In this document: positions 15,674-56,382 of the stretch, one piece after another
How positions within the stretch are numbered: position 1 is the stretch's first letter
Layout of the letters: each line of letters begins with the position of its first letter
IMG/VR virus record: IMGVR_UViG_3300042196_000264
Strand: one strand, 5' to 3'
Source of the DNA: an uncultured virus (IMG/VR IMGVR_UViG_3300042196_000264)
Taxonomy: Duplodnaviria; Heunggongvirae; Uroviricota; Caudoviricetes
DNA: 64,000 bases
Made by a program: the position numbers and the translations under genes
The notes under the pieces: model-generated
What the model was told of the DNA's origin: nothing
Seen by the model: the letters and a program-made list of their open reading frames with translations, nothing else
Databases searched by the model: none

Positions 15674-16542
15674 TGTCAGCATCAGGACCAACCCAGACGC
15701 AGATCTACAGGCTTGCGGTAATTACCGGGCTTTTCCAAGAACACCTTCTGAATGAGTATGTCGGGAAAGTGGTCGGAAAACCGCAATGGGTGATCAAGAA
15801 GAGGGGCAGGAAGGTCTACCCAGAGCCGCTCACGTCCGGAGACTACAAACGGGCGATCGATCACGCGAAGAGCAGGAGCGGCAACCCTAAGCTCCCGGAC
15901 CTCTACAGCCTGATCCGACCCGGTGACCGCGTCACGGTTGTGGACTCCCGCGGTGGACGCCACGTCGGGAAGGCCGTGATGCGCGGTCCCGCCGGATGGG
16001 TCCTCAACATGGGAGGCCGCCATGGGAAGACGGCAATCGCCCACCGAGACAACGTCGTGGGCGTCAAGCCGAGTGTGACTCCAAGGGCAAGGAAGTCGAA
16101 AGGGAACCGTTTCAAGGTCCGCTTCTGGACTGGGCCGTCCTACGTGGAGCAGATCGCCGCCAAGGCCAGAGCGGCCGGATATCACCCGGTCGTGGGCACG
16201 GAGCACATCGTCGTGGAGTCCGAAGGCTCCGACAAGGGCGCGGCCGCTCACAATTTTCTCGTCGACATGCAGCGCAAGCACGGCACGGACTTTGGCCTCC
16301 GCGTTCATAATCCTGACGTGAGCAAGCCCGAGTTGCTAGCAGCGATCAGGCGCGACCAGTCCGATCTGGAGAAGTACCGTGGCTATGTCCGCAAGCTCAG
16401 AGCCGGAGGCAAGGTCAGCAACCTCACGCTCGAGAAAGCGGAGCACATTGTCTCTGGACTCGAGTCCACGATCGCCACCAAGAAGAAAACGGCTGCGGCA
16501 ACGTCCACGAAGCGGCTCGCCAACAAGCTCAAGAGGTCATGA
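15673..16542 (+). CDS. Basic multidomain protein ending KRLANKLKRS
   Basis: TGATG coupling; internal RSGNP and RVHNP. Confidence 0.75.
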   Translation: MSASGPTQTQIYRLAVITGLFQEHLLNEYVGKVVGKPQWVIKKRGRKVYPEPLTSGDYKRAIDHAKSRSGNPKLPDLYSLIRPGDRVTVVDSRGGRHVGKAVMRGPAGWVLNMGGRHGKTAIAHRDNVVGVKPSVTPRARKSKGNRFKVRFWTGPSYVEQIAAKARAAGYHPVVGTEHIVVESEGSDKGAAAHNFLVDMQRKHGTDFGLRVHNPDVSKPELLAAIRRDQSDLEKYRGYVRKLRAGGKVSNLTLEKAEHIVSGLESTIATKKKTAAATSTKRLANKLKRS

Positions 16543-17057
16543 TGGCTACCAAGATCAAGAAGTACTACGGGATCCTCGGCGACAACAACCCCATCGAGCA
16601 CTGGGGAGGTGTTGTCTACGAGGGGCAGTACGGTCCAGAAGTCACCTACTTCCAAAGCTACGAAGACAAGGTCTCCGTCTACAACTTCCAAGTGGCCGAG
16701 GACGTGACCAAGGACCTCGACTGGGTGAAGTGGGAGAACGTAGCTACGTACATCGGGATGCCCACCAGCGAGCTCAAGGCCCACGCGAAGTCCGACAACG
16801 TCATGGCCAGAGCCAGCGTGTACGAGTCCGTCGCTGGATACTACGGGTTCACAGAGATCGGGAGTTGGGAGCCCGTGGAGATGTCGCTCAAGGCAGCTGA
16901 GAAGAAGTACGGGCGCATGGTCGATGCTGCCCACAGGTCCAGCAGCGGCAGGTCATCCAACCGGCGCAGCGTGAGCCGCAGCAAACCCAGAAGTGGCGGA
17001 CGCTCATCCTCCGGAACGGTCACATCACGGCTCGCGAACAAGCTCAAGAGGGCATGA
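16539..17057 (+). CDS. Protein ending SRLANKLKRA
   Basis: Acidic globular domain followed by an RSKPRSGGRSSSG tail. Confidence 0.75.
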   Translation: MMATKIKKYYGILGDNNPIEHWGGVVYEGQYGPEVTYFQSYEDKVSVYNFQVAEDVTKDLDWVKWENVATYIGMPTSELKAHAKSDNVMARASVYESVAGYYGFTEIGSWEPVEMSLKAAEKKYGRMVDAAHRSSSGRSSNRRSVSRSKPRSGGRSSSGTVTSRLANKLKRA

Positions 17058-17629
17058 TGTCGAAGAAGCCGAACCCTGCGCACAGGGACATCTTCCACTC
17101 CGGAACCTACAAGGCCGTCGTCTCCGAGGGCTACCGGGTCACGGTGTGGAAGGGCAGGAAGAAGGTCGGGGCCTGGGTGATCGCTCCGCCCATGTACGAG
17201 TTGAAGCTCGGGACCTGGGGACCCTCGGATGTGGCCGCCGCAGGGATCAAGACAGCGAAGGAGCGCGAGCGGAACCAAGGCAAGAAGTCCGGCGCCGACC
17301 ATCAGGACCCGATCCTCGCCCTCTTCAACTACCACGGTGGCCAGGGAACGGCGCTCTATGGTGTCGCCTCGACGCTCAACGCCGGACGAACCCCGACGGA
17401 TGACGCCATCGACGAAGCGATCACTGACCTTGAGATCTACGCGCGCAAGACCAAGAGCCGTAAGGACAAGCTCGAGATCGCGGAACTGATCGATTACCTC
17501 GGGTCGATCAAGGGAGGCCGGTCATCGAACTCACGACGCGTGGGCCGCAGCAAGCCCAGGAGCGGCGGAAGATCTTCGTCTTCCGGCATGCAGACCTCCC
17601 GCCTCGCCAACAAGCTCAAGAGGGCCTGA
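17054..17629 (+). CDS. Protein ending SRLANKLKRA
   Basis: Same tail as ORF 16539 with an unrelated N-terminus. Confidence 0.75.
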   Translation: MMSKKPNPAHRDIFHSGTYKAVVSEGYRVTVWKGRKKVGAWVIAPPMYELKLGTWGPSDVAAAGIKTAKERERNQGKKSGADHQDPILALFNYHGGQGTALYGVASTLNAGRTPTDDAIDEAITDLEIYARKTKSRKDKLEIAELIDYLGSIKGGRSSNSRRVGRSKPRSGGRSSSSGMQTSRLANKLKRA

Positions 17630-17632
17630 GTC

Positions 17633-18829
17633 ATGCGAAAACGCAACACAACGTCAGCACGGGCCATGGAAGTTGCGAAGGAGATCCAGCGGCAGCTTGG
17701 GAGCAAGACTTTCTTCATGCTCGGCGCAAAACACCTCACGGCGATTGGCAGCGGAGTGGGAGCAGGTCATCCCGGGCTGATGTTCCAGATCCGCGGGTCG
17801 AAGGTCGCCAACCACATATCGATCGTCCTGGACCCGGATGACACGTACACGATAGCCTTCGCCAAGATCGGCCGTGACTACAAGGCCAAGGTGGTCAAGG
17901 AGTTCAGTGGCGTCCACTTCGACCAACTCCACGGCATCATCGAGAAGACCACTGGGCTCTACACTCGCATGAACCCTGGCAAGTCACGATCAACTAACCG
18001 TTCGTGCAGGAAGTGCGGCGGGAGGATCGGAACTCAGGATCCAGGAGATATCTGCAGTACCTGCAAGTGGAGAAAATCGCCCAAGGCGACCAAGCGAGTC
18101 AATCCGACAGAGCATTACGACAAAGATTTCGGCAACGCAGCATGGGATGATCTTCTACGCGGCATCGACGGCGGCAGCCTCAATGCGAGCGTAGAGTTCC
18201 TCGATCGTGTTGGCTCATGGCCATCCGAAGACCACGAGGTTCGGAAGTACCAGGCGAAGGCCAACAAGATCCTCCTCGGACGAAGAGGCATGTCGAACAA
18301 TCCGTCGTCCGCCAAGCACCTGTTCGTCGGGATCATGCCGGGAGGGATCTCCTACGCGGACAAGCGCTCCGAGGAGGATGGAGACTACAAAAAGGTAGCC
18401 TTCCTCCCGTACGACACGCTGGACCTCAGGGTCTACGACAGCAAGAACTCTCTCCTGCCGATCGTGAAGTCCCACGCGAAAACGATCATCGACCAGCGCG
18501 GCAAGACCTTCGAGATCAGCGCCTCAGGTCAGACCGTCACACTCGGACGCAAGTCGCGAAATCCCGGTGGCCGCAAGCCCCCGAGTGGCGGCACGCTTCC
18601 GCCCAAGGGCAAGTGCATGCTCGCTGCGGTGTACGAGTCCGCCGTAGCTGGAGGTCTGGGCAAGCGCAAGAAGAAAGCCGCCGCCAAGCAGGCATGGTGC
18701 GCTGTGAAGAGGCAGTACAAGAAAGTCGGAGCGACCTGGAAGAAGCGGAAGCGCACTCTGGGACCCGGCGAACAGCCACCCGGATGCACGCCGCTGAAGC
18801 GGCTCGCCAACAAGCTCAAGAGGTCATGA
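17633..18829 (+). CDS. Multidomain protein ending KRLANKLKRS
   Basis: Segments separated by RMNP, RVNP, NNP and KSRNP; includes a CxxC...CxxC module. Confidence 0.75.
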   Translation: MRKRNTTSARAMEVAKEIQRQLGSKTFFMLGAKHLTAIGSGVGAGHPGLMFQIRGSKVANHISIVLDPDDTYTIAFAKIGRDYKAKVVKEFSGVHFDQLHGIIEKTTGLYTRMNPGKSRSTNRSCRKCGGRIGTQDPGDICSTCKWRKSPKATKRVNPTEHYDKDFGNAAWDDLLRGIDGGSLNASVEFLDRVGSWPSEDHEVRKYQAKANKILLGRRGMSNNPSSAKHLFVGIMPGGISYADKRSEEDGDYKKVAFLPYDTLDLRVYDSKNSLLPIVKSHAKTIIDQRGKTFEISASGQTVTLGRKSRNPGGRKPPSGGTLPPKGKCMLAAVYESAVAGGLGKRKKKAAAKQAWCAVKRQYKKVGATWKKRKRTLGPGEQPPGCTPLKRLANKLKRS

Positions 18830-19068
18830 TGGCTCGCAGGAAAGGCGCGAAGAAGAAGAAGGCAGGCGTAACGGCGCCGGCGAGTGCCTCTCCGGAAGTG
18901 CTCGCATGGGCGGCAGGCAAGACGCGCCGCGAAAAGGTGGACGGGGTGTGGACGCTTGTGCCTGTCGACGATGGGCATCGCGCAAGTGCTAGCCGTAACG
19001 GCAACCCATGCTGCAGCCCATGCAGGCTCAAGAACCTCGCGAAGAACCTGAAGAAGGTGTCGTCATGA
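18826..19068 (+). CDS. Small basic protein ending KNLAKNLKK
   Basis: ATGA coupling; RNGNP. Confidence 0.65.
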   Translation: MMARRKGAKKKKAGVTAPASASPEVLAWAAGKTRREKVDGVWTLVPVDDGHRASASRNGNPCCSPCRLKNLAKNLKKVSS

Positions 19069-19493
19069 ATGAAAATCCACCGCCAGAGTTCCAGCAAGGC
19101 GACCTCGTGCGCCCGTCTCGCTCGTACCTCCGTGCCCTGGGGGGAACCGGGCCCAGGGACGGACTGGTCGCGGGATGGGCTGGTGACATGGTCGTCATCG
19201 CCTGGAACGACGACTCTGAGAACCCCAGGCTCGTCGCTCCGGCCAGTCTCGAGCACTTCGGTCACAAGGACTGGTTGATCCCAGAGGCGAGGAAGCTCCT
19301 GGCCAAGTTCAGAAAGCTCATGAAGGCCCGCGGCGCGACCCAGGCCGAGCTCGCCGGGATCCATTCCGGACGACACGGCAACCCTGATCCGATCGGAAAC
19401 AGACGATCCATGTCGAAACAGAAGCCGCGCAGTGGATCCCACGGACGCCCGCTCGCTCGACTCGCCAACAAGCTCAAGAGTACGCGATCATGA
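19065..19493 (+). CDS. Protein ending RLANKLKSTRS (SH3/KOW-like N-domain)
   Basis: FQQGDLVR...DGLV pattern; RHGNP. Confidence 0.7.
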   Translation: MNENPPPEFQQGDLVRPSRSYLRALGGTGPRDGLVAGWAGDMVVIAWNDDSENPRLVAPASLEHFGHKDWLIPEARKLLAKFRKLMKARGATQAELAGIHSGRHGNPDPIGNRRSMSKQKPRSGSHGRPLARLANKLKSTRS

Positions 19494-19966
19494 AGAAGCG
19501 CATGCGTGTCGTAGCCAATCCGAGGGCGGAAGACTGGGAAGACGTCTGGTACGCCACCGGGGTCGAAGACGCCAAGTATCACGGGCCCGAGTCATTCCTC
19601 TTTTCGGAGGGTGACATCTCGAGCATGTTCATGTATGCAGAACGATCTGCAGATCCAGAGTACAGGCCAGGATCGGAGAAGGATTACGTGCGAGGGTTCA
19701 AGAGCGTGATCAACTGGGCAGGTATTCCCAAGTCAAAAAACACATCCAAGCGAGGCTCGATCCACGAACGGATCGCTGAGGCTCTAGGGTGGTCAGTCGC
19801 GGACGTGCGGTCGTTCTCGCTGCCGTCTCTTCGCGATCTGGTCAGGCCAGATCATCCAAAGCTTGCGCACGAGATCGACGAGTCCATCCGTTCTGGCGGC
19901 ATCGTCAAGCAAACCAACCGCAAGCCAGCGCTGTCCCGCCTCGCCAACCGACTCAAGAACCCATGA
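19490..19966 (+). CDS. Protein ending RLANRLKNP
   Basis: Starts MKKRMRVVANP. Confidence 0.7.
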   Translation: MKKRMRVVANPRAEDWEDVWYATGVEDAKYHGPESFLFSEGDISSMFMYAERSADPEYRPGSEKDYVRGFKSVINWAGIPKSKNTSKRGSIHERIAEALGWSVADVRSFSLPSLRDLVRPDHPKLAHEIDESIRSGGIVKQTNRKPALSRLANRLKNP

Positions 19967-20589
19967 CCACGAAGAAGCGCATGCGCGTCGTCGCCAATCC
20001 CCAGGACCCCCGCGCGGAGGCACGCAAGGTCGTGCCCGCTCAACATGTCGCCCGGCTCGAGTCCTCGGGCGCCCGCTGGGTCTTCGGGCGGATGGACCCC
20101 TGGGCCTCTCGCGTCCTCAACAAGCAGGTCGGGCGCCCCGGAGCACTCGCGCTCAAGCGAGCGGGGATCTCGATCTTGCCCCCGCGGTCGAAGAACGCAT
20201 CTGGGGAAGAGATCGCTGCCGCTGCCCACGCGTACACGAGCGCGGAAGACGATCGCCTGAACGCGATCCGCAGTGGCAGTCGCCAAGGGGCCAAGGCCGC
20301 CACGAAACGCAGCAAGGCCGCCATGAAGGACCTCCAGCGAACAGCCGCAAGCGGCCCGACCGTTGGTGCGGCCGTTGGTGCGGCCCTCGGAGCTGCCGCC
20401 GGCGCTATGGGAGGCCCGCTCCTCGCAGCAGCTGGCGGAGTGGCAGGGGCCCTGGCCGGTAGCATGGTCGTGACCCCCAAGAACGGACGCGCCCAAGAAC
20501 CGCCCCCATCCAACCTCGAGACCGAGGAAACCTCGCTCGCCCCCTACCGCGGACGCTACCGAAACCTGGCCAAGAGTCTGAAGGAGTAA
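19963..20589 (+). CDS. Glycine-zipper protein ending RNLAKSLKE
   Basis: Starts MTTKKRMRVVANP; GxxxG tract. Confidence 0.7.
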   Translation: MTTKKRMRVVANPQDPRAEARKVVPAQHVARLESSGARWVFGRMDPWASRVLNKQVGRPGALALKRAGISILPPRSKNASGEEIAAAAHAYTSAEDDRLNAIRSGSRQGAKAATKRSKAAMKDLQRTAASGPTVGAAVGAALGAAAGAMGGPLLAAAGGVAGALAGSMVVTPKNGRAQEPPPSNLETEETSLAPYRGRYRNLAKSLKE

Positions 20590-20590
20590 C

Positions 20591-20926
20591 ATGGCACGCA
20601 AGAAGAACATTGCCCACTCGCGCAAACGAAAGAACGGCTCCAAGACGGATGCTGCTCTCGGCGCTGGAACAGGCTCGCTCATCGGCGGAACGATCGGAGG
20701 TCTCACTGCCGGACCCATCGCGGCCTACGGTGGCTCGATCGTCGGTGGCATGCTCGGCACAGGACTGTTCGGAAAGAAGCCGTCCGGAAAGGCTCGCGTG
20801 AGCGCGACCGTCGGCGCAGCCCTCCTCGGACCCATCGGGGCTGGTGTCGGGGCGGCACTCGGAACAGACTCGAGCCGCGGTAGCAACATGAAGCGTCTCG
20901 CCAACCATCTCAAGAGGTACACATGA
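20591..20926 (+). CDS. Glycine-zipper protein ending KRLANHLKRYT
   Basis: GxxxG repeats. Confidence 0.7.
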   Translation: MARKKNIAHSRKRKNGSKTDAALGAGTGSLIGGTIGGLTAGPIAAYGGSIVGGMLGTGLFGKKPSGKARVSATVGAALLGPIGAGVGAALGTDSSRGSNMKRLANHLKRYT

Positions 20927-21108
20927 GCAAGGAAGAACTCGAAGCACGCGCGCGCGGGATCTCGGAGCGTCATGCCCAGAGGGCAGCGGACATCCATGTG
21001 CTCGCCATCAACAGGCTCGCCACGAGGCAAGCCGCAGCGGAAGCCAGAGCCGCCAGAGAAGCCGCCATGGCAGACGACCTAGCGGACGAACCAGATTCCG
21101 TGGCATAG
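20923..21108 (+). CDS. Small hypothetical protein
   Basis: ATGA coupling; contains NRLATR. Confidence 0.5.
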   Translation: MSKEELEARARGISERHAQRAADIHVLAINRLATRQAAAEARAAREAAMADDLADEPDSVA

Positions 21109-21152
21109 TACGGGCAACCGTCGCCGCCACACAACCCCGGAAGGAGGCCGCC

Positions 21153-21572
21153 ATGGCCAAGAAGCGAAGTAAGAAACGAGCCAAGAAGGCGGGCTCCGCC
21201 CGCAAGACCCGCCGCAAGAAGAACAGCTACGGGGCGAAGCGCCGTGCGCATAGGATCGGCGCCGCACTCGCCCGCCGCAAGCCCAACAAGAAGAAGCGCC
21301 GCAAGAAGGCCGGCAAGAAGCGTGCGAAGAAATCGACCACGCCCGCTTGCTCAACCGCCGCGACCGAGCTCGTCGACTGCCGCTGGGGCAAGAAGACGAG
21401 CAAGAAGAAGCGCGCGAAGAAGGCCGGCAAGAAGGCCGGCAAGAAGCGCTCGCGCAAGCGCAACACCGGCGTCCGCGTCGAGAGCTTCGGGCCGATGCTC
21501 CCTGCGTCATCGCCACGCAGCGCCAATCCTCAGCACATGGCGCGTCTCGCCAACCGCCTGAAGCGGGCCTGA
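21153..21572 (+). CDS. Histone H1-like K/R/A-rich DNA-binding protein ending RLANRLKRA
   Basis: AGGAGG RBS; KKAGKKRAKK repeats; RSANP before the tail. Confidence 0.8.
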   Translation: MAKKRSKKRAKKAGSARKTRRKKNSYGAKRRAHRIGAALARRKPNKKKRRKKAGKKRAKKSTTPACSTAATELVDCRWGKKTSKKKRAKKAGKKAGKKRSRKRNTGVRVESFGPMLPASSPRSANPQHMARLANRLKRA

Positions 21573-21655
21573 TCCAAAAAAAGCGCACGTAGGCTGCTTG
21601 GTGGAGGATGGAGGGGGACCAGTCCGCCACCAAGCAGCCGACCTACTGAAACGCC

Positions 21656-31034: not shown

Positions 31035-31057
31035 GTTTCCTGGTGTACACTCAGGTC

Positions 31058-31294
31058 ATGAAGCGCTTCGCACCATCCATCCTTCTGATCCCACTCCTGT
31101 TCTCCTGCGACCAGAAGGCAGCCAAGGCCGTCAGCTGCGCTGTCGCAGACGAGAAGCTCTCCGTCGCGTTCACGGATCCAGCGCGCGCGCGCGACTACCT
31201 GACAAGGCTTGCCGACCGTCTCGAGTCTGGTGAGCCCAAGGCAGCCGGGGAAGCGGCCGAGTTGGTGGCCACCATCGTCGAGTGCCTGCGCTGA
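31058..31294 (+). CDS. Small lipoprotein, copy 1
   Basis: MKRF...LLFSC lipobox-like; TACACT 6 nt upstream of ATG. Confidence 0.7.
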   Translation: MKRFAPSILLIPLLFSCDQKAAKAVSCAVADEKLSVAFTDPARARDYLTRLADRLESGEPKAAGEAAELVATIVECLR

Positions 31295-32162: not shown

Positions 32163-32222
32163 TGATCGATGCCGATCATGGGCCATATGGGTCAGGTCTT
32201 GCGTGCTAGTGTAGCCAACACC

Positions 32223-33424: not shown

Positions 33425-33873
33425 CTTGGATCTTCGTGTGCGAGAGTCGGTATGCGTAGGGGTGGTTCCTTGGTTCTTCGTGTGCGAGAGAAGAGTGTTG
33501 CGGTGTCTCGAGCCACATCGACCGCCCATCCGCGCCAGCGACCGAGCAGCTTGGATCTTCGTGTGAGAGAGAAGAGCGTTGCGAGAGGTACGCCATGGGG
33601 TCCACGTCGTTGAGCGCGCATGCTTGGATCTTCGTGTGAGAGAGAAGAGCGTTGCGAGTAGGCAGAGCTTCCGTCGAGAGTGGGGCTCTGGAACTTGGAT
33701 CTTCGTGTGAGAGAGAAGAGCGTTGCGAGGCGAGAAATCGGGGATCCTCCGATGGGCCATGGAGGCTTGGATCTTCGTGTGAGAGAGAAGAGCGTTGCGA
33801 GGAGGAAGAGGCCATGAGACTGTTTTCGCAGCAAGTCCTTGGATCTTCGTGTGAGAGAGAAGAGCGTTGCGAG
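33425..33873 (-). CRISPR. CRISPR array 1: 5 intact repeats plus 1 degenerate and 1 truncated
   Basis: Repeat (minus sense) CTCGCAACGCTCTTCTCTCTCACACGAAGATCCAAG at 33550, 33623, 33694, 33766 and 33838; 35-37 nt spacers; decay at the left end. Confidence 0.95.
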
Positions 33874-33983
33874 TGGCCCCCTACTGGTGCACGTGCGAGG
33901 TGCTGGGGCCGTCGGCACCTGCGCATCATGGCACGCGGGGCCAGGGCGCGTCAACGCCCGGTCTTGCGTGCTAGTGCAAACCA
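33874..33983 (-). promoter_or_regulatory. Leader/promoter of array 1
   Basis: Minus strand TTTGCACTAGCACGCAAG box, then TTGACG-N18-CATGAT with a TG extension; homologous to the other two leaders. Confidence 0.8.
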
Positions 33984-34012
33984 TAGCCGGAGTTCATACA
34001 CTCCAACAACCC

Positions 34013-34246
34013 ATGAAGTCCCTCACGATCGTCCTCGCAGCGCTCCTCATCTCCTCTTGCGACCAGAAGGCAGCCAAGGCCGTCAGCTGCGCGATCGCGG
34101 ATGAGAAGCTCTCCGTCGCGTTTACGGATCCTGCACGAGCGCGCGACTATCTCACGAGACTCGCCGACCGACTGAAGACTGGCGAGCCCAAGGCCGCTGG
34201 AGAAGCAGCCGAGCTCGTGGCCACGAGCGTCGAGTGCCTACGATGA
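34013..34246 (+). CDS. Small lipoprotein, copy 2
   Basis: Mature part nearly identical to ORF 31058; LISSC; TACACT upstream. Confidence 0.7.
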   Translation: MKSLTIVLAALLISSCDQKAAKAVSCAIADEKLSVAFTDPARARDYLTRLADRLKTGEPKAAGEAAELVATSVECLR

Positions 34247-38297: not shown

Positions 38298-38373
38298 TGG
38301 TGCTCTCGGAAGGACTTGAACCTCCGACGCTCGGCACTTCAAGCCGACGCTCTACCAACTGAGCTACGAGAGC
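38298..38373 (-). tRNA. tRNA-Phe (GAA) with encoded CCA
   Basis: 76-nt cloverleaf: acceptor GCTCTCG/CGAGAGC-ACCA, anticodon arm TCGGC-TTGAAGT-GCCGA, T loop TTCAAGT. Confidence 0.93.
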
Positions 38374-38407: not shown

Positions 38408-39385
38408 CTTGGATCTTCGTGTGAGGAAGATGTGTGTTGCGAGTGCGCACGAGGTCGACGTCCTGCCAACGGAGCGCCCTCCTGGATCTTCGTGTGAGGA
38501 AGAAGTGTGTTGCGAGATGGCGACCTCCGGTTGTCCCGTGAGGTACCGGGGGCTTGGATCTTCGTGTGAGGAAGAAGTGTGTTGCGAGTACCGCGCTACC
38601 GCCTCCTCCTTCCGCACCGCGTTCCTTGGATCTTCGTGTGAGGAAGAAGTGTGTTGCGAGTGGGGCGGGGCTATCATGCGGGTGCACGGCTGTGGATCTT
38701 GGATCTTCGTGTGAGGAAGATGTGTGTTGCGAGAGGGCGGTGGGTGCCTGCGGTACCTGGGACATGCCCACTTGGATCTTCGTGTGAGGAAGAAGTGCGT
38801 TGCGAGGTGACGCGAGCTTGCCGACGAAGCTCCGGTCCGAGACTTGGATCTTCGTGTGAGGAAGAAGTGCGTTGCGAGTGCAGACACCGGGTTGCCAGGT
38901 CGCGGTGTACGGACTTGGATCTTCGTGTGAGGAAGAAGTGTGTTGCGAGACCGGCGCTCTGGATAAGCGTATTCCAGCTTGACGTCTTGGATCTTCGTGT
39001 GAGGAAGAAGTGTGTTGCGAGGCTGGCTGGGCGAGCGCGCTCGCGGGCAGCGTCATCTTGGATCTTCGTGTGAGGAAGAAGTGTGTTGCGAGTTGTGCTC
39101 GCCCGCACTCGGCCTCCCAGCCATTCCTGCTTGGATCTTCGTGTGAGGAAGAAGTGTGTTGCGAGCTGCGTCGGGATGGCCTGGGACGGGGTGGCATGGC
39201 CGGCTTGGATCTTCGTGTGAGGAAGAAGTGTGTTGCGAGCTGACGACCACCGAGACCCACTCCCTGACGGGGGAGCTCTTGGATCTTCGTGTGAGGAAGA
39301 AGTGTGTTGCGAGTTCGAGCCTTTTCGCGTGAGCCTGGGAGTACTCGTCCTTGGATCTTCGTGTGAGGAAGAAGTGTGTTGCGAG
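38408..39385 (-). CRISPR. CRISPR array 2: 14 repeats, 13 spacers
   Basis: Repeat (minus sense) CTCGCAACACACTTCTTCCTCACACGAAGATCCAAG; 35-38 nt unique spacers. Confidence 0.97.
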
Positions 39386-39493
39386 AGCCACCCTGTTGCC
39401 ACGCTGGCGTGGTGATGAGGCAGTCGGCACATGCGCAGGATGGCACGCGACGTCTGAGTGCGTCAACCCCCGGCCTTGCGTGCTAGTGCAAAG
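39386..39493 (-). promoter_or_regulatory. Leader/promoter of array 2
   Basis: Same box, then TTGACG-N18-CATCCT. Confidence 0.8.
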
Positions 39494-45539: not shown

Positions 45540-46597
45540 CTTGGATCTTAGTGTGAGAAAGAAGTGTGTTGCGAGCGCAGCGACGGAGCGTCTGCCGCTG
45601 CTTCATCAGGTCCTGGATCTTCGTGTGAGGAAGAAGTGTGTTGCGAGGCGAACTCTACGGCCGCCCCCAGAGGTCTCGTCTGGCCTGGATCTTCGTGTGA
45701 GGAAGAAGTGCGTTGCGAGTCGGCGCCACGTCGGTGATCGTGAGTAGTGGATCGGTGTCCCTGGATCTTCGTGTGAGGAAGAAGTGTGTTGCGAGGCACC
45801 ATCCTGGGTCCGCTGGTGAAATATCACCGTCCTGGATCTTCGTGTGAGGAAGAAGTGTGTTGCGAGCCGAGACGATCCAGGCGGGGCTCCTGGACATCCT
45901 GCTCCTGGATCTTCGTGTGAGGAAGAAGTGTGTTGCGAGAAGGCATGATCAGCTTTGAGGCCACAGCGAACGCCATCCCTGGATCTTCGTGTGAGGAAGA
46001 AGTGTGTTGCGAGTACTCGCTCGCGCAGGTCGTGGAGGCCCTTGGGTCCCCTGGATCTTCGTGTGAGGAAGAAGTTGTGCTGCAAAGCCGTGCCCGTGAG
46101 CCCCCAGAGGAAGAGCGTACAGCGGCCTGGATCTTCGTGTGAGGAAGAAGTGTGCTGCAAGTCCAAGCCCGCCACGGTGCAGCTTGTCCTGTTTGGGCCT
46201 GGATCTTCGTGTGAGGAAGATGTGCGTTGCGAGTTCGCCCTGACGTTCGGCACCCTGCCCACGATGCGATACCTGGATCTTCGTGTGAGGAAGAAGTGTG
46301 TTGCGAGCGGGCAGGCCTGGATCGCGGTCGAGGGGGCAGGACGGGCCCTGGATCTTCGTGTGAGGAAGAAGTGTGTTGCGAGACTGCGCCCCCTGCGCCG
46401 GGCGCAGAAACGGTGGCACCTGGATCTTCGTGTGAGGAAGAAGTGTGTTGCGAGACGATCGTGGTGAACGGCCGGGAGATGCAGGTCGACCTGGATCTTC
46501 GTGTGAGGAAGAAGTGTGTTGCGAGGAGGATACGGGCGTGCGGTTGGCCGCGGACTGCATTCCTGGATCTTCGTGTGAGGAAGAAGTGTGTTGCGAG
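45540..46597 (-). CRISPR. CRISPR array 3: 15 repeats, 14 spacers
   Basis: Repeat (minus sense) CTCGCAACACACTTCTTCCTCACACGAAGATCCAGG; 35-40 nt spacers; degenerate leftmost repeat. Confidence 0.97.
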
Positions 46598-46707
46598 GGC
46601 CCCACTGTTGCCACGCTAGCATGGTACTGGGACCGTCGGCACTTGCGCAGGATGGCACGCGACGTCTGAGCGCGTCAAGGGCCGGTCTTGCGTGCTAGTG
46701 CAAAACC
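46598..46707 (-). promoter_or_regulatory. Leader/promoter of array 3, divergent from the effector gene
   Basis: Same box, then TTGACG-N18-CATCCT. Confidence 0.8.
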
Positions 46708-46783
46708 ATTCGCTAGAGCAAAGATCATGGGCGTGTCGATTTTCGCTTGTAGCTTTCCGTTCGGGACGGTAAGAAGCCCTCAC

Positions 46784-48586
46784 GTGGTCGACGCGAAACC
46801 AGACGCCAAGAAGGGCGTGCGCAGCAGGCTCCTCGAAGAGAAGAAGTCTCGGCGGGAGGCAGCGCTGCAGGACGGGCTCATGTGCGTGTACCAAGCGTAC
46901 AAGTACGAGATCCGTGAACGCTCGCCAGGACAGTTCCAGTTGCTGGCCAGGCACGCTGGCCTGAGCAGGTTCGCGAAAAACTGGTCGCTCCGGTTCTGGG
47001 TCAAGGAGCGAGAGGAGTTCGAGCGCGCGCGCGAACACATCAAGCTGCTGAAACTCGATGGATCCGCGGAAGCGGGCATCGCAGAGATCCAGAAGGTGCT
47101 TGACGAAGCCGTGAGGTCCTACTGGAGCTCGGCCATCCATGAGTCGTGGACGAAGGAAGCCCGCGATGTCGTGGACGAGATCGTGGCGTCCGCTCCGTTC
47201 GCCATCGTTCTGAACCTCGAACAGCAGCAGGAGAAGAGGGAGAAGATCGCGAAGGCGAAGGCAAAGGAAGCGGCGAAAAAGGCGAAGGAGGCGGCGAAGA
47301 GGTCTGCTTCCTCCCGCCGCAGCGTGGGCAGGCTCCGATCTGCAGCTCTTCCAGAAAAGGAAAAGGAAGAGGACAAGCCGCTGGAGATCGTAGAGCATCG
47401 GCGCACCCCTCTTGGGCTGCTGTCGAGGCTGTGGACGCAAACCGTCAAGCAGGTCTGCGTGAGCAGGGAGGATGGAAGCTTCTGGGCTGCGGGCCTGACC
47501 AGATGGGCCGCACAGGGTGCCCTCATCGCCACGGACGGAGCCTATTTCACGCACTTCAAAGCCCGTGCCAAGGCCAATCGTGGAGAGCTCTCTCGCGACG
47601 CAGTCCCAGGGCTCCCGACCTTCAAGAAGCGTAACGGGAAGAAGTCGTTCGCGGTCCAGTACTCGGGCGTCAAGTTGCCGCACGACGATGCGTCCCTTCG
47701 ACCCGATGAGGTGAAGGTCCAGGGCGTTGGAGTCGTAAGGCTCTACGAAGGACTGCAGAAGTTCCAGGGGACGATCAAGGCTGTCTCGGTCTCGAGCGAG
47801 GTTCGCGGCCGCTGGTGGATCTCGTTCACCGTCGAACGGACGCGACCGATCCCACGGCGTCGGCCGCAACCACGGGTAGGCGTCGACCTCGGAGCCAGGG
47901 ACACGATCACGCTCTCCGACGGCGTGGCGCACGAGCGCTCCTGGGAGGCTCCGAAACCGCTCGCCAACTCGCTCAAGAGGTTGCGTCGTCTCAGCAGGGC
48001 CCAGAGTCGTCGGAGAAAACCGTCGTGGGATAAGGAGACGCATGAGACCCTCGTCGAGGGGAGCAGCGGTTGGTACAAGGCTCGCCTCGAGGTCGCCAAG
48101 CTCAATTTCAAGATCGCGTGCCAGCGGCGGAACTGGCTCCACAACGTCACCACCGAGATCGCGAAGACGTACACCGACATCGTCATCGAGGGGTACAACG
48201 CCCGCGAGCTCGTGAAGAAGTCTCGCAAGGTCGTGAAGACGAAGGAGGGCCGTCGTAACATGGCCGACTCCGCAGTGGGGATGGCGCGATGGATGCTCAA
48301 GTACAAAGGTGACTGGTACGGGTGCCACGTCACCGTCGCCGACTCCAAGCTCCCCGCGAACAAGACCTGCTCCGTGTGCGGATGGGTGTCCCAACGCACG
48401 CAGTCCAAGAGGATCTACAAGTGTGATGCCTGCGGACAGCAGTGCATCAGGCCGATCAACACGGCAAGGTTTCTCGCTCGGTTTCGGCCAGGTGAGGAAG
48501 GACCGGCTATGGAATCCGGTCCCAAACTGGGTGGAGAGGACAAGCTAGCCCCGTCGGAAACGGCGGACGTGATGCCTCCTCCGTGA
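46784..48586 (+). CDS. tnpB: CRISPR-associated TnpB/Cas12-like RNA-guided protein, probably nuclease-dead
   Basis: AYKYEI...LLARHAG.SRF..NW, PTFKKR, GVDLG (RuvC-I), IVIEG (RuvC-II), CSVCG...CDACG zinc finger; RuvC-III reads IRPINTA in place of DRDxNAA; likely GTG start, about 600 aa. Confidence 0.88.
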   Translation: MVDAKPDAKKGVRSRLLEEKKSRREAALQDGLMCVYQAYKYEIRERSPGQFQLLARHAGLSRFAKNWSLRFWVKEREEFERAREHIKLLKLDGSAEAGIAEIQKVLDEAVRSYWSSAIHESWTKEARDVVDEIVASAPFAIVLNLEQQQEKREKIAKAKAKEAAKKAKEAAKRSASSRRSVGRLRSAALPEKEKEEDKPLEIVEHRRTPLGLLSRLWTQTVKQVCVSREDGSFWAAGLTRWAAQGALIATDGAYFTHFKARAKANRGELSRDAVPGLPTFKKRNGKKSFAVQYSGVKLPHDDASLRPDEVKVQGVGVVRLYEGLQKFQGTIKAVSVSSEVRGRWWISFTVERTRPIPRRRPQPRVGVDLGARDTITLSDGVAHERSWEAPKPLANSLKRLRRLSRAQSRRRKPSWDKETHETLVEGSSGWYKARLEVAKLNFKIACQRRNWLHNVTTEIAKTYTDIVIEGYNARELVKKSRKVVKTKEGRRNMADSAVGMARWMLKYKGDWYGCHVTVADSKLPANKTCSVCGWVSQRTQSKRIYKCDACGQQCIRPINTARFLARFRPGEEGPAMESGPKLGGEDKLAPSETADVMPPP

Positions 48587-48646
48587 AGCCCGGACTTCGT
48601 GTGAACTGCTTCGCCTCCCGGCAGGTAAATCTCGGGAGGCACTTTT
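48500..48646 (+). ncRNA. Putative tracrRNA derived from an omega-RNA scaffold
   Basis: Nested hairpins overlapping the gene end; CTTCGTGTGA at 48595-48604 is complementary to the crRNA repeat; 5' end uncertain. Confidence 0.75.
48613..48646 (+). terminator. Terminator after the putative tracrRNA
   Basis: GCCTCCCG...CGGGAGGC followed by ACTTTT. Confidence 0.7.
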
Positions 48647-49698
48647 CACGCTCGACGCTTGCGTAGGCGCGAGACTTGAGCACCGCTTCCGCGGGAATGC
48701 TTTCCAGATCCCTTCTTGCTCGGAGAACCGTGGATCAGGATCTCCTCCAACTCGTCGACCAACTTGCGAGGGGAACTCGTCCTGGCGTCGTCGTAGCGCT
48801 GCAGCATCGCTACTCCTGCGTGGCGTGTGAGCCTGGAAACGTCGCGGAGGTTTCCGTCCGTCATGTCCAGAGCGGTCGTCGCCCCGGTGTGACGCAACCC
48901 GTGTGGACGGATCCGCTTTCCATGCGAAGCGCTGATCCTGTCGAAGAGCCGCCTGACCGCAGCGATCGTCAACCTCTTCCCGCTGGACCTGTTTCCGAGC
49001 GTGATGAAGAGCGGGCCTTTCTCCTTCCCGCGGATCGCGAGCCATGCACGGATCGCATCCGCCGTCATCGCGCCGATCGGAAACCAAGATTTCTCACGCT
49101 TGCCCTTCCCGCGGAAGCGGATCTGCGGTTCCTTGCCGAGGTCCAGGTCTTCCGGGAAGTCGATGGCGAGCGGCTCCATCCGGCGCAGCAGGCAGGTCGA
49201 GTAGATCCTGACGAGCGCGAGGTCCCGGGTCGCCAGTGGGTCCCCCGCCGTCGCCAGTCTCGCGAGCTCGGCGTCGATTTCCCGGACGGACGTCGCCCCG
49301 GGGCCCGAGGGGTCACGCTTGGCCTCGTGGCGGACGCTGTCCACCTCGAGGGTCCAGGAGCAGAGGCCCAGGAGCCTGGCGACCCGCAGGAACGCATTCA
49401 GGCTGGCCAGCCTGCGGTTCACCGTGGAGCTGGCCAGGCCCGCCTCGCGGGCCTCGTCCCGCCACTCCAGCACGAGGGCGTTGGCCTCGGGTCCGGGGCG
49501 GCTGAGCAGGTCTGCGAGGGCGGACCTGGCGTCCGGGGTGCCCATGAACGCCGCCAGCGAGCGGAAGTCCCGTTCGTACTCGGCCGCCGAGGCCTTGGAG
49601 AGGCTGGCCAGGAGCCGTTCGTAGGCCCCGCTGCTGGGGCGCCTTGCGGCCTGGCGGGGGACTACGGCGGCGACGGGGGGCAGCTTGGCTGGGAGCAC
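48646..49698 (-). CDS. Tyrosine recombinase/integrase
   Basis: STVNRRLASL, RDLAL, LRRME, GKG, HGLRH, TRH, QRYDD; catalytic set intact; likely GTG start at 49698. Confidence 0.92.
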   Translation of the reverse strand: MLPAKLPPVAAVVPRQAARRPSSGAYERLLASLSKASAAEYERDFRSLAAFMGTPDARSALADLLSRPGPEANALVLEWRDEAREAGLASSTVNRRLASLNAFLRVARLLGLCSWTLEVDSVRHEAKRDPSGPGATSVREIDAELARLATAGDPLATRDLALVRIYSTCLLRRMEPLAIDFPEDLDLGKEPQIRFRGKGKREKSWFPIGAMTADAIRAWLAIRGKEKGPLFITLGNRSSGKRLTIAAVRRLFDRISASHGKRIRPHGLRHTGATTALDMTDGNLRDVSRLTRHAGVAMLQRYDDARTSSPRKLVDELEEILIHGSPSKKGSGKHSRGSGAQVSRLRKRRA

Positions 49699-52692: not shown

Positions 52693-53037
52693 ATGAAGAA
52701 GCAAGCCAAAAAAACCACCACGCGCAAAGCTGCCAGCCAGAAGTCGGCAGCACCACTCCTCACAGTCGGCAACATCGTGCTGATCCGGACCGCCGTGTAC
52801 CACGCGCTTGGACGTGTCCAAGCCCTGTTCACGGTCGAAGGCGTGGGATTCGTCCAGATCGCGGAGGCAAGCTATATCGGCGACACAGGCCGGTACCACG
52901 AGGCGACGTCGCGGCGTCTGGCGGAGATCGCCAATGCGGAGATCGAGCCAGTCGGTGGCGCCGGACTGATGGATATCCAGGTCGCAGCGATCTGCGACGT
53001 CGCCATCACCGTCGCGACGGAGAAAACGGTAAAATGA
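52693..53037 (+). CDS. Phage hypothetical protein with Sm/SH3-like beta pattern
   Basis: VGNIVLIRT..YH..GRV...ASYIGDTGRY...EIEP; directly precedes the Ser-X mini-genes. Confidence 0.7.
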   Translation: MKKQAKKTTTRKAASQKSAAPLLTVGNIVLIRTAVYHALGRVQALFTVEGVGFVQIAEASYIGDTGRYHEATSRRLAEIANAEIEPVGGAGLMDIQVAAICDVAITVATEKTVK

Positions 53038-54157
53038 GCCCGATCATGCACATGGCACGGACGCGGACGCGGTCGGGGTCGGGGTCACGGACGCGGTCGG
53101 GGCCGGTGTCGCGGTCGCGGTCGCGGTCGGTGTCGCGGTCGGGGTCGCGGTCGGTGCCGCGGTCGGGGTCGTGGTCGTGGTCGCGGTCGCGGTCGTGGTC
53201 GCGGGCGCGGTCGCGGGTGCGGTCGTGGTCGGGGGGGTCGTGGTCGTGGTCGGGGTCGTCAGGAGGTGCCAGATGAGTCCGGTGATCCGCATGGCGTGTT
53301 CGCGAGTGTCGTGGGGAATGGGGTCGGTGTCGCGGTCGCTGTCGCTGTCGGTGTCGCGGTCGCGGTCGCGGGTGCGGTCGTGGTCGGGGTCGGGGTCGGG
53401 GTCGCGGTCGCGGTCGTGGTCGCGGGCGCGGTCGCGGGTGCGGTCGTGGTCGGGGGGGTCGTGGTCGTGGTCGCGGTCGTCAGGAGGTGCCAGATGAGCC
53501 CGGTGATCCGCATGGCGTGTTCGCGAGCGTTGTGGGGACTGGGGTCGCGGTCGGGGTCGTGGTGGTGGTCGCGGTCGCGGTCGCGGTCGCGGATGCGGTC
53601 GGGGTCGGGGTCGGGGTCGCGGTCGTGGTCGCGGTCGTGGTCGCGGATGCGGTCGTGGTCGTGGTCGTGGTCGTGGTCGCGGTCGCGGACGCGTTCGTCA
53701 GGAGGTGCCAGATGAGCCCGGTGATCCGCATGGCGTGTTCGCGAGTGTTGTGGGGACTGGCGTCGGTGTCGCGGTCGGCGTCGCGGTCGCGGTCGCGGTC
53801 GCGGTCGGGGTCGCGGTCGTGGTCGGGGACTCGGACGCGGACGGGGTCGTGGTCGTGCTCGCGGTCGGGGTCGCGGTCGCGGTCGCGGGTGCGGTCGTGG
53901 TCGGGGTCGCGGTCTCGGGCACGTTCGTCAGGAGGTGCCAGATGAGTCCGGTGATCCGCATGGCGTGTTCGCGAGCGTTGTGGGGACTGGGGTCGGGGTC
54001 GGGGTCGCGGTCGGGGTCGCGGTCGGGGTCGGGGTCGCGGTCGCGGTCGCGGTCGGGGTCGGGGTCGCGGTCGCGGTCGCGGTCGTGGATGCGGATGTGG
54101 TCGTGGTCGTGGTCGTGGTCGCGGTCGCGGTCGCGGTCGTCAGGAGGTGCCAGGTGA
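53034..54157 (+). repeat. Five tandem mini-genes encoding (Ser-Arg/Gly/Trp)n peptides
   Basis: ORFs 53034-53276, 53273-53497, 53494-53715, 53712-53945 and 53942-54157; junctions TCAGGAGGTGCCAGATGAG; body is (TCG-NGG)n. Confidence 0.85.
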
Positions 54158-54402
54158 CCGCACCCGACTACCACGTCGGTCTCGAGGGGTGGGCGGTGTT
54201 CGCTGATGACACCGGTTCGGAACTCGTGGGATTTTTTGCCCGCAAGGAAAACGCCGAGTTGTTCGCCGCTGTTACCTTCGATGACGGATGGGTCGTAGCA
54301 CCCGCCGTAGTAACTGAGGGTGGGATCGTGGTGGTAGACGACGATACGGTCGAGACCCACGAGCATGTCTGGGCCTGCGTCCGGGAAAGACGTGCTCCTT
54401 GA
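54154..54402 (+). CDS. Small acidic hypothetical protein
   Basis: GTG start served by the same AGGAGGT junction. Confidence 0.55.
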   Translation: MTAPDYHVGLEGWAVFADDTGSELVGFFARKENAELFAAVTFDDGWVVAPAVVTEGGIVVVDDDTVETHEHVWACVRERRAP

Positions 54403-55231
54403 AGATTTCGCACACGAGGATGGTTACCTGATGAGTGTGATCCTGAAGGCGCTGAACGTTCGGTACTCGCCGCCTGAGTGGTCGACGTACACCGAGGTGG
54501 ACCTGAGGGGCCGGCGAGCGGATTTCGTCGCCGTCAACCTCTGGGAGAGTCGCGGTGGCCATGTCGTCGGCGTGGAGATCAAGGCCTCACGCTCGGACTG
54601 GCTCCGTGAACTTGCGGATCCTTCCAAGATGGACAGGCTGTTCCGGGAGTGCAATCTGGTCTACCTCGCCGTGGATGACCCAAAGATCGTGAAGGATGAC
54701 CTTCCGCCCAGGTGGGGTCTCCTCGTGCTTCAGGGCAGCCGCATGGTCCAGAAGGTGAAGCCTGACACCACCAAGCCCGAGCATACGCCAATCTTTTGGC
54801 GAAGGCTGATCCAGCACGAGCTCAACCACCGTACGGCCATGGTTCACCATGCCGTGAGTCTGGAGAGGGAGAGGATGAGGGCTGCGATCGAGGGCGAGGA
54901 GATCGAGCGCCTGCAAAAGGAAGTCGAACGTCTCAAGGGAGCCGTTGGCGTGCATGCCGAGGCGCGAGACAAGGCCGAAGAGAGGTTCAATGACATGGAG
55001 TCAACCTTGGAGTGGTTGGCTGGGTTGGGGCACTTCGAGAGGGAACGCGCCCGCGCAGCCATGCACGTCCTGAGAAAGAGTTGGTGGTGGTGTCAGGCGT
55101 GGACAGGTGACCGTTTCCAGAAGGACTGCGCAGACGTAGCCGAGAGAGCGGCCGCCGTCGGCAAGGATATCAACAACCTCGCACGGGTGATCCGCGGCGA
55201 GCCAACAGAGACCCCAGAGGAAAGCCCATGA
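54365..55231 (+). CDS. MmcB-like PD-(D/E)xK nuclease with coiled coil
   Basis: RRADFVAV...GVEIKASRSDWLREL.DPSK...LP..WGL. Confidence 0.75.
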   Translation: MSGPASGKDVLLEDFAHEDGYLMSVILKALNVRYSPPEWSTYTEVDLRGRRADFVAVNLWESRGGHVVGVEIKASRSDWLRELADPSKMDRLFRECNLVYLAVDDPKIVKDDLPPRWGLLVLQGSRMVQKVKPDTTKPEHTPIFWRRLIQHELNHRTAMVHHAVSLERERMRAAIEGEEIERLQKEVERLKGAVGVHAEARDKAEERFNDMESTLEWLAGLGHFERERARAAMHVLRKSWWWCQAWTGDRFQKDCADVAERAAAVGKDINNLARVIRGEPTETPEESP

Positions 55232-56382
55232 AGTTCGAGATCAGCAAGTCAGACCTGTCACGCATGCTCTCGGAGGCAAGCTCGGTCGCAGCCAAGAAGA
55301 AGGCCGCGCCTGCGTCCACGATCCTGTCAAACGTGAAGATCGCGTCTGGGGATGGATTCGCACAGGTGTCGAGCACGAACCAGATCATCGCGTACACATC
55401 GCAATGCAACGTCGAGAACACTGGGGAGCAGGAGTCCTACATCGTCGATGCCCACAGCGCAAACAAGCTCGTCAGCCTCCTGCCCGAGAGCAAGCTCGGC
55501 GTCGAGACCAACCCAGCGCGCACGCACCTATGCATCAGGGTCCTGGACGAGAAGCTCGATCCAGTCGAGATCCGTCTCCAGTGTTGGGGTGCCAGGGACT
55601 TTCCCGACTTCCCCGCACAGCATGACGAGCTCGGCTACGAAGTCGATGGCGCCTCGCTCACCAAGCTGATCACATCGACGAAGGCGTCCATGAGCCACAA
55701 CGTGGCGGCCGAGCACATGAACGGGGTGTTCCTGTCCTGCAAGGACGGCACCGCCGTCGCGGCTGCAACGGATGGCGTGCGGCTGCTCAGGTACACCAAG
55801 CCCATCCCCGACCTCGTCATCGACCCCCCTGTTTTCCTTCCAGAAGACGGAGTGAGCGCTGCGGCGCGGTTCATCGACGAGTCCGAGAAGGTAAGGGTGT
55901 ACGTGGGCAATGACCACGTATTTTTCGCAAGAGGTGGCGCCTGCATCGCGATGCGTTACCTGTCAGGCATGTCATTCTCGAAGTACGAGAGGGTGATCCC
56001 GAAGGATCTAGCGTCGTCCATACGCATGAAGACTTCCGCATTCTTGGTGGCAGTTGAGCAGCTGATGACGATGACGTCAGGACGCGACGAGGTCGTAGCC
56101 ATCGAGATCGGGCCGGAGGTTACACGCGACACGGTCATGTTCGAGACCTCCAACCCGGACATCGGCGTGGCCCGGGTACGTATCGGGTACTCGGAACCAC
56201 GTGGTCCAGGTAAGCACCTGCGGATGGGGTGCAACATCAGGTCCATGAGCGAGATGGTGGGGGCGATGGCTGACTGCGAGAGCGTCGAGTTCTCATTTGC
56301 GGGGCCCCTCGACGCCTTCACGATCCGCCCGACGTGCTCGGATGACCTGCTCGCCGTGATGGCGCCGATGCGGCTACAGTAG
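55228..56382 (+). CDS. dnaN: DNA polymerase III beta sliding clamp (divergent)
   Basis: ILSNVKI, DFPDFP, MNGVFL, AATDGVRL, YERVIP, AVMAPMRL; 384 aa. Confidence 0.88.
   Translation: MKFEISKSDLSRMLSEASSVAAKKKAAPASTILSNVKIASGDGFAQVSSTNQIIAYTSQCNVENTGEQESYIVDAHSANKLVSLLPESKLGVETNPARTHLCIRVLDEKLDPVEIRLQCWGARDFPDFPAQHDELGYEVDGASLTKLITSTKASMSHNVAAEHMNGVFLSCKDGTAVAAATDGVRLLRYTKPIPDLVIDPPVFLPEDGVSAAARFIDESEKVRVYVGNDHVFFARGGACIAMRYLSGMSFSKYERVIPKDLASSIRMKTSAFLVAVEQLMTMTSGRDEVVAIEIGPEVTRDTVMFETSNPDIGVARVRIGYSEPRGPGKHLRMGCNIRSMSEMVGAMADCESVEFSFAGPLDAFTIRPTCSDDLLAVMAPMRLQ

Follow-up and report, generated by a model that had tools for sequence, protein, structure and literature searches.

Four CRISPR arrays in a viral genome

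The IMG/VR record studied here is a single sequence of 119,894 bases, classed as a virus, with direct terminal repeats (119.77 kb plus a 127-bp terminal repeat) and a CheckV completeness of 78. The window, i.e. the whole 64-kb stretch of DNA that was analysed, is the start of this record; positions beyond it are marked as genome positions. The record carries four CRISPR arrays built on a single 36-bp repeat family (50 repeat copies, 46 intervals), together with genes for a TnpB-derived Cas12-like protein and a tyrosine recombinase:

33425..33873, minus strand: CRISPR array 1, 7 repeat copies of a variant repeat, with its leader at 33874-33984
38408..39385, minus strand: CRISPR array 2, 14 repeats of 36 bp and 13 spacers of 35-38 nt
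39386..39492, minus strand: leader of array 2, sharing ~85% identity over ~107 nt with those of arrays 3 and 4
45540..46597, minus strand: CRISPR array 3, 15 repeats, divergent from the candidate effector gene
46598..46704, minus strand: leader of array 3, between array 3 and the candidate effector gene
46727..48586, plus strand: 619-aa TnpB-derived Cas12-like protein (candidate effector), facing away from array 3 across its leader
48646..49698, minus strand: XerC-like tyrosine recombinase, the sole PF00589 gene of the element, without an ALRW motif
genome 76726-77686: CRISPR array 4, with its leader at genome 77687-77794

Regular repeats, unique spacers (43/44 of them 34-40 nt long) and a common leader identify these loci as CRISPR arrays. 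The analysis bears on the 44 spacers that fill intervals of at least 30 nt, two remnants of 8 and 18 nt being left out. All four leaders share the ~85% identity over ~107 nt, with invariant blocks that include a TTGACG hexamer on the minus strand. Since every array has its leader on the right and two arrays are decayed at the left end, we infer that transcription proceeds on the minus strand, which would then be the crRNA sense, as the first-pass annotation had also taken it to be. A sigma-70 scan gave 0 sites, and the consensus fold of the leaders is weak, with a compensatory change in 1/12 pairs. Pieces of 16-17 nt from one leader block recur at 32195-32211 and at genome 114279-114294.

Among 7,742 genome windows, none was conspicuous as a tracrRNA or anti-repeat, and an Rfam scan of 33-50 kb returned only tRNA. 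Array 2 is followed, 34 bases downstream, by a tRNA-Phe(GAA) gene of like orientation (38298-38373, minus strand), of which the genome contains no other copy of 14 nt or more. The Cas1, Cas2 and Cas4 families had no match in the record, and the same profiles matched 7/14, 6/14 and 8/14 control genomes, respectively. The repeat pattern had 0 matches in each of GTDB, JGI and IMG/VR, a result that neither shows nor excludes a host array with this repeat.

About 80% of the words of the 38-48 kb part of the window are present in three sediment metagenomes, and no RNA dataset is listed among the holders of these words. Two of the sequencing runs in which the element occurs, X1 and X2, have a contig in which 38407 is followed directly by 38698; their allele of array 2 thus lacks the spacer at 38444-38480 and its three neighbours. 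The repeat at 38481 ends in CCTGG, as is typical of arrays 3 and 4, which hints at exchange between arrays.

Neither Pfam (42 + 28 proteins) nor PHROG (56 of the ~200 predicted genes) recognised a terminase, portal or major capsid family, and Terminase_6N had no match. The element has its own DNA polymerase III beta clamp (55228-56382) and, at genome 68384-75098 and 78556-80481, a sugar-modification cluster around array 4 and a DNA methylase with an intein/LAGLIDADG match. Many small genes of unknown function with membrane-anchor-like ends occupy 2-22 kb and 84-89 kb. Among the repeated sequences are eight genes in a row (16509-21584) with a near-identical 3′ stretch encoding a RLANKLKR-like C-terminus (repeat family D20), ~210-bp tandem units at 52986-54169, each with a short ORF that begins MRITGLIWHLLT and continues in Thr/Ala/Pro repeats, and a near-identical pair of short lipoprotein-like genes (31043-31294 and 34013-34246). 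As regards the host, the best match of GMD is 63% to a Deinococcus plasmid, and the structure neighbours of the clamp fall in Myxococcota and Bacillota clusters.

An integrase-like spacer in array 2

The first-pass annotation had proposed that a spacer of array 2 encodes a tyrosine-integrase motif of another element and is not directed at the element itself. This spacer is leader-distal and is flanked by the repeats at 38408-38443 and 38481-38516:

38444..38480, minus strand: 37-nt spacer reading RALRWQDVDLVR, which corresponds to the stretch that directly follows the first catalytic Arg (R-x-x-E) in tyrosine integrases of the phage/ICE type

We scored it against a position profile of 58 integrases, drawn from 66 integrase loci that were collected by family search alone and from which 8 without a parsable first-Arg motif were dropped; one duplicate, three loci from genomes not yet published and two integrases retrieved via the motif did not enter it. 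The spacer aligns at offset +5 relative to the catalytic Arg with 20.4 bits, compared with 8.2 bits for the runner-up among the 44 spacers and less than 0 for its own five other frames. True integrases in a leave-one-out test have a median of 19.7 bits, and 28/58 of them score as high as the spacer. The Arg ahead of ALRW is unusual, as Leu, Val and Cys dominate at this position of the profile. With a 165-column profile of the whole domain, the spacer scores 20.7, a value that 1/5,000 shuffles attained. The other spacers do not get below p 0.08, which leaves one of 44 with a score on the catalytic domain of integrases.

Database searches are consistent with this reading. The back-translated core pattern of the spacer occurs at 24 sites in IMG/VR, all 24 in frame in proteins above the PF00589 cut-off, and a looser pattern gave four IMG/VR matches (24-27/37), each with R-x-x-E upstream. 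In GTDB, the two matches to a 10-codon pattern are both in integrases, albeit distant ones (24/37 and 28/37). When the whole of array 2 was compared by blastn with 50,697 phages, two matches were obtained, both in this spacer and both annotated as integrases, and arrays 1, 3 and 4 gave 1, 0 and 1 weak unannotated matches. Against plasmids, arrays 2 and 3 gave 8 and 11 rows at chance level. With the spacer alone, integrases are the best 2 of 14 phage rows and 5 of the best 6 of 33 plasmid rows; 12/14 phage and 27/33 plasmid rows are not annotated as integrase, and the remainder beyond the best rows is noise (E of at least 1).

Could the motif have arisen by chance, the true source being another gene or the opposite frame (AHEVDVLPTERP)? 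The spacer was chosen after the fact from 44 spacers in six frames, and the search for an exact target was negative. Pfam and PHROG scans of its 21-aa padded peptide returned nothing, although HMMER filters drop such short matches. A codon model, which finds the correct frame in 4/4 known primase spacers (see below), prefers the RALRWQDVDLVR frame only narrowly (2.07 vs 1.62), so that the opposite frame is almost as coding-like. Nevertheless, the score of the spacer was reached by none of 10,000 shuffled spacers (maximum 13.7) and none of 9,565 37-nt tiles of its own genome (maximum 15.6), and the opposite-frame pattern had 0 matches in the IMG/VR test that gave 24 for the integrase frame. We thus regard a chance motif as highly improbable, and the first observation of the annotation is confirmed and its reading supported: the spacer most likely stems from a foreign phage/ICE-type tyrosine integrase.

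The donor itself was not found in IMG/VR, JGI, GTDB or the sequencing runs, where the best match to the spacer is 32/37. The exact spacer had 0 matches in IMG/VR and an 11-codon wobble pattern had 0 in the JGI metagenomes; the best of the 24 IMG/VR core matches is 30/37 and an integrase of an Exiguobacterium phage matches at 31/37. Runs X1 and X2 each contain one small non-array contig of low depth (2-2.4) that matches at 30/33 and 32/35, with hand-translated flanks GTGLRQGEIL...GELTVRHTLQ and WTGMRLGEVL...KVLRVTATLS. We rejected both as protospacers: over the full spacer they match at 30/37 and 32/37 (5-7 mismatches), no nearer than unrelated public integrases (31/37), and they therefore represent the right kind of integrase in the right habitat, not the donor. 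Runs X7 and X5 contain no contig that matches the spacer. Judged by these alignments, the database matches indicate the gene family and not the donor.

The element's own recombinase reads LRRMEPLAIDFPEDLDL at the site equivalent to the spacer peptide, a segment that scores -1.1 bits. Its 71% relative reads LAVDYPEDLDL there, and the L-x-W-x-D motif is present in 1/55 of its homologs. In addition, the best match of the spacer in its own genome is 23/37, which is chance level. With a recombinase so divergent, in the element as in its kin, and a genome match at chance level, the spacer is neither a self-target nor directed at the recombinase of kin; on this point too the annotation is borne out.

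Primase-helicase spacers and other targets

The most frequent recognisable target of the arrays is of another kind. Four of the 44 spacers match the element's own primase-helicase gene at 29-34/36 nt, each above all of 880 shuffles, and none of the 44 spacers matches another own gene at this level. The features concerned, with a further spacer discussed below, are:

genome 97895-100636: own D5-type primase-helicase gene, 2.3% of the genome
38950..38985, minus strand: spacer matching the primase-helicase gene at genome 98475-98510, 34/36 nt, peptide identical, 5′ flank TTC
46014..46049, plus strand: spacer matching it at genome 98510-98545, 30/36 nt and 9/12 aa, plus frame YSLAQVVEALGS vs own YTLAQIVEALGA
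33730..33765, plus strand: spacer matching it at genome 100215-100250, 29/36 nt
genome 77615-77650: spacer matching the primase-helicase gene, 31/36 nt
33586..33622, minus strand: spacer reading CALNDVDPMAY, a weak match to the C-terminal region of IS66 transposases (Pfam E 0.037)

The differences between these spacers and the gene are mostly synonymous, kin primases read like YSLAQVVEALGS, and in the spacer at 38950-38985 both mismatches fall within the first 11 nt. Primase relatives were sought in IMG/VR and none was confirmed. Two of the spacers run in the sense of the gene and two against it, and their presence on both strands points to DNA targeting. Three of them cluster at 98474-98545; this clustering is only suggestive, because two of the spacers overlap, the third is adjacent and conserved genes are detected more easily. 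In the own genome, the matched sites have TTC, CTT (shifted by one base), ATC and AGC as 5′ flanks; in 17/58 integrases, TC ends the codon that directly precedes the segment of the integrase spacer. A 5′ NTC-like PAM is possible on this basis, if weakly supported. Kin primases are the dominant recognisable target of the arrays.

This assignment overturns the reading of the spacer at 46014-46049 as a second, weaker integrase case: the peptide GLHDLRE on which it was founded is literally encoded, but in the wrong frame, the primase match being 30/36, and the integrase domain profile does not place the spacer in its top 8. The broader proposal that integrases of rival prophages or ICEs are targeted now depends on one spacer. 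It is supported as regards the foreign integrase origin of 38444-38480 and unsupported for integrases as a class (1/44 spacers). Indeed, integrase genes make up 2-3% of two temperate phage records that we inspected, and at that share a single match in 44 spacers shows no preference.

The other spacers were less informative. All 44 spacers were compared with Pfam in their three best stop-free frames (132 peptides), which gave five weak matches, the IS66 C-terminal one being the best, and none for the integrase peptide; a PHROG scan of 20 spacer peptides gave none. The spacer at 45720-45759 was considered as a piece of an excisionase gene and dropped, as its single IMG/VR match has no ORF of at least 40 aa over it. 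Altogether, the recognisable targets are four primase, one integrase and one probable transposase, and 38 spacers are without a recognisable target.

The TnpB-derived protein and its possible mode of action

The candidate effector is the only TnpB-family gene of the record. It retains RuvC residues D387 and E488 and a C4 zinc finger, but the Asp of RuvC-III is replaced by Pro576 (D-E-P), and its local sequence near RuvC-III offers no substitute acidic residue. This Asp is present in 88/94 aligned homologs, and Pro occurs in the candidate and in its one close relative (62-66%), found among 1.84 billion representatives; the next TnpBs are below 42%, and no relative was confirmed in IMG/VR. This relative and the 71% relative of the recombinase are both on Logan contigs of 11,869 bp, probably the same one. 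In a FastTree phylogeny of 151 sequences (midpoint root, diagnostic RuvC-III column included in the alignment), the candidate and its close relative belong to a 22-member clade, all of whose sequences lack the RuvC-III Asp (support 0.94). The REC segment N85-W253 spans 168 aa for a median of 38 and contains an insertion of ~130 aa that is predicted to be helical (pLDDT 84). The nearest solved fold is ISDra2 TnpB (Z 23.6, rmsd 3.0, 337 aligned), followed by Cas12p (16.5), Cas12m (16.0, rmsd 4.1, 394 aligned) and Cas12n (15.4, 215 aligned). In PADLOC the best model is Cas12u4 (V-U4) with 170.8 bits, level with the IS607 TnpB model at 170.3 bits, which is below its cut-off of 350; Cas12u1 (V-U1) gives an E of 6.6e-7 over 127 residues vs 1e-50 for the V-U4 and TnpB profiles.

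The protein was compared with several known families. As regards the TnpB of an IS200/IS605 or IS607 transposon, no Y1 or serine transposase (TnpA; PF01797, PF00239) matched in the record, of CheckV completeness 78 as given above, and the triad D387, E488 and P576 is not D-E-D. As for Cas12n (V-U4), no anti-repeat stood out, the flanks TTC, CTT, ATC and AGC are not A-rich and the RuvC-III Asp is absent. It has one trait of Cas12m (V-M), a helical REC2-like insertion in a TnpB core, whose homology to Cas12m REC2 is putative; its V-U1 profile match is weak, so that by sequence it was not assigned to Cas12m, as judged by profiles and fold. The candidate thus looks like Cas12m in plan and is not filed as one. 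As the V-U1 profile is weak and TnpB, not Cas12m, is the nearest fold, an origin independent from Cas12m is likely, as judged from sequence profiles and the predicted structure.

We propose the following mode of action, to which, taken as a whole, we give slightly better than even chances: an integrase-derived guide would steer the element's own Cas12-like protein to the DNA of a rival's gene, where the protein would bind and block transcription rather than cut. A piece of the integrase gene of a rival element in the same host would have been inserted at the conserved leader by the Cas1-Cas2 of the host. The arrays would be transcribed leftwards and the guide from 38444-38480 would carry the sense of the integrase mRNA; a guide with mRNA sense cannot pair with that mRNA and would thus have to act on DNA. 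One effector could serve all four arrays, given their common repeat and leader. Bound to the template strand, it would block transcription, and integration or excision would be prevented; as a non-cutting roadblock, it would leave the rival locked in the chromosome and the host DNA unbroken. That the spacer guide is loaded on the TnpB-derived effector is likely. It is also fairly probable, from its sequence, that the effector does not cut; the one observation behind this is the loss of the RuvC-III Asp, and non-cutting is the weakest step of the mechanism.

A more specific version of this proposal is quite improbable. In it, a RuvC-III-less branch of IS607-like TnpB would have independently given rise to a type V system that is nuclease-dead, needs no tracrRNA and serves as natural CRISPR interference. 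The integrase and primase spacers would be directed at a single kind of rival, namely a satellite or integrative element with both an ALRW-type integrase and a primase-helicase close to that of the virus. Such a rival would be locked in the chromosome with its excision and replication silenced and the host DNA uncut. All four self-matching spacers fall in one gene, as would be expected if the target shared only that gene with the element.

Two other readings share the integrase origin of the spacer. In one of them, which we consider unlikely, the target is cut, either because the rearranged RuvC site is active or because a host Cas complex whose repeat is similar makes use of the arrays. The protein still has D387 and E488, but a Pro at RuvC-III is unable to bind metal and no acidic residue replaces it locally; six large TnpB branches with conserved changes of RuvC-III may retain activity (PMC10691335). 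The phage effector Cas12r requires RuvC for interference (bioRxiv 10.64898/2026.04.20.719267). Three of the four arrays lie far from the effector, like the phage mini-arrays that borrow host Cas proteins (PMC11656645); the absence of the repeat from GTDB, IMG/VR and JGI records is, as noted above, neutral on a host array. Cutting would also have to be reconciled with the 34/36 match to the element's own essential primase gene, which is tolerated despite its TTC flank, yet both mismatches are seed-proximal.

The other reading is that the integrase spacer is neutral by-catch: the host Cas1-Cas2 would have sampled any mobile DNA, and selection would act only on the primase spacers. It is compatible with the same integrase origin and denies only that the spacer at 38444-38480 matters; we hold it to be somewhat unlikely. 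About one integrase spacer is expected from random uptake at an integrase share of 2-3%, and one in 44 is what scores on the integrase domain. Moreover, this spacer is the oldest of array 2 and is missing from the allele in X1 and X2, which fits a dispensable, old spacer. It lies, on the other hand, on a strongly conserved motif, where escape is hard, and the IS66-like spacer as a second mobility-gene spacer suggests a wider use against other elements; neither point is decisive, since detection is biased to conserved motifs.

Several known systems resemble the one proposed here. Cas12r of Thermus Lalka phages (bioRxiv 10.64898/2026.04.20.719267) is likewise a phage-borne, TnpB-derived compact type V effector (564 aa) beside an array, without adaptation genes or tracrRNA, and its spacers are directed at integrative elements with a tyrosine integrase and a primase-helicase, just as integrase and primase-helicase spacers occur here. 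It differs in that it cuts, for which RuvC is needed, works with an ARG PAM and has repeats of 29 bp and spacers of 31-33 nt, and in that its 15 element protospacers lie upstream of integrase genes, whereas one spacer lies inside the integrase motif here. With 36-bp repeats, a D-E-P site lacking the RuvC-III Asp and four arrays, our candidate departs from the description of Cas12r. Cas12m, type V-M (PMC10442227, PMC11656645), is also an effector of ~600 aa made of TnpB and a helical REC insertion and carried on mobile elements, and with its non-canonical RuvC it silences rival elements by binding; the triad of Cas12m2 is HDD vs D-E-P here. For the myxophage MvCas12m, the preprint reports an intact triad and no targets found (bioRxiv 10.64898/2026.09.14.751636).

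A further parallel is VIPR, by which phage SUSP1 silences the excision recombinase of the F5 satellite (bioRxiv 10.64898/2026.10.15.759431): a phage RNA guide is directed at a conserved coding stretch in the recombinase of a rival and silences its transcription. VIPR is not CRISPR, reads its target non-contiguously, and has had its target and effect shown experimentally, whereas here they are inferred. Kin-targeting viral arrays, as covered in PMC11656645, also lack Cas1/2/4 and carry spacers against related viruses, as do 4/44 spacers here with their kin primase; unlike them, the present arrays are long, at 7-15 repeats, and have an effector of their own. In the partial literature that we covered, we found no account of a phage CRISPR effector that is nuclease-dead and directed at an integrase, and nothing relevant on spacers aimed at integrase genes, though Table S5 of the Cas12r preprint may list such protospacers.

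A single integrase-derived spacer is ordinary, and virus-borne CRISPR against other mobile elements is established; the new element is supplied by the effector. On the side of method, reading a spacer as a peptide can name the class of its target without a database protospacer, and it misleads when the frame is not controlled, as with GLHDLRE. If the hypothesis holds, the effector would be a candidate compact programmable DNA binder. The system also offers a ready test of whether viruses hold their rivals in the chromosome by a CRISPR that only binds, so far shown for the non-CRISPR VIPR. Finally, if the D-E-P protein silences without cutting, it would represent another independent conversion of TnpB to Cas12, converged on the strategy of Cas12m, in a virus.
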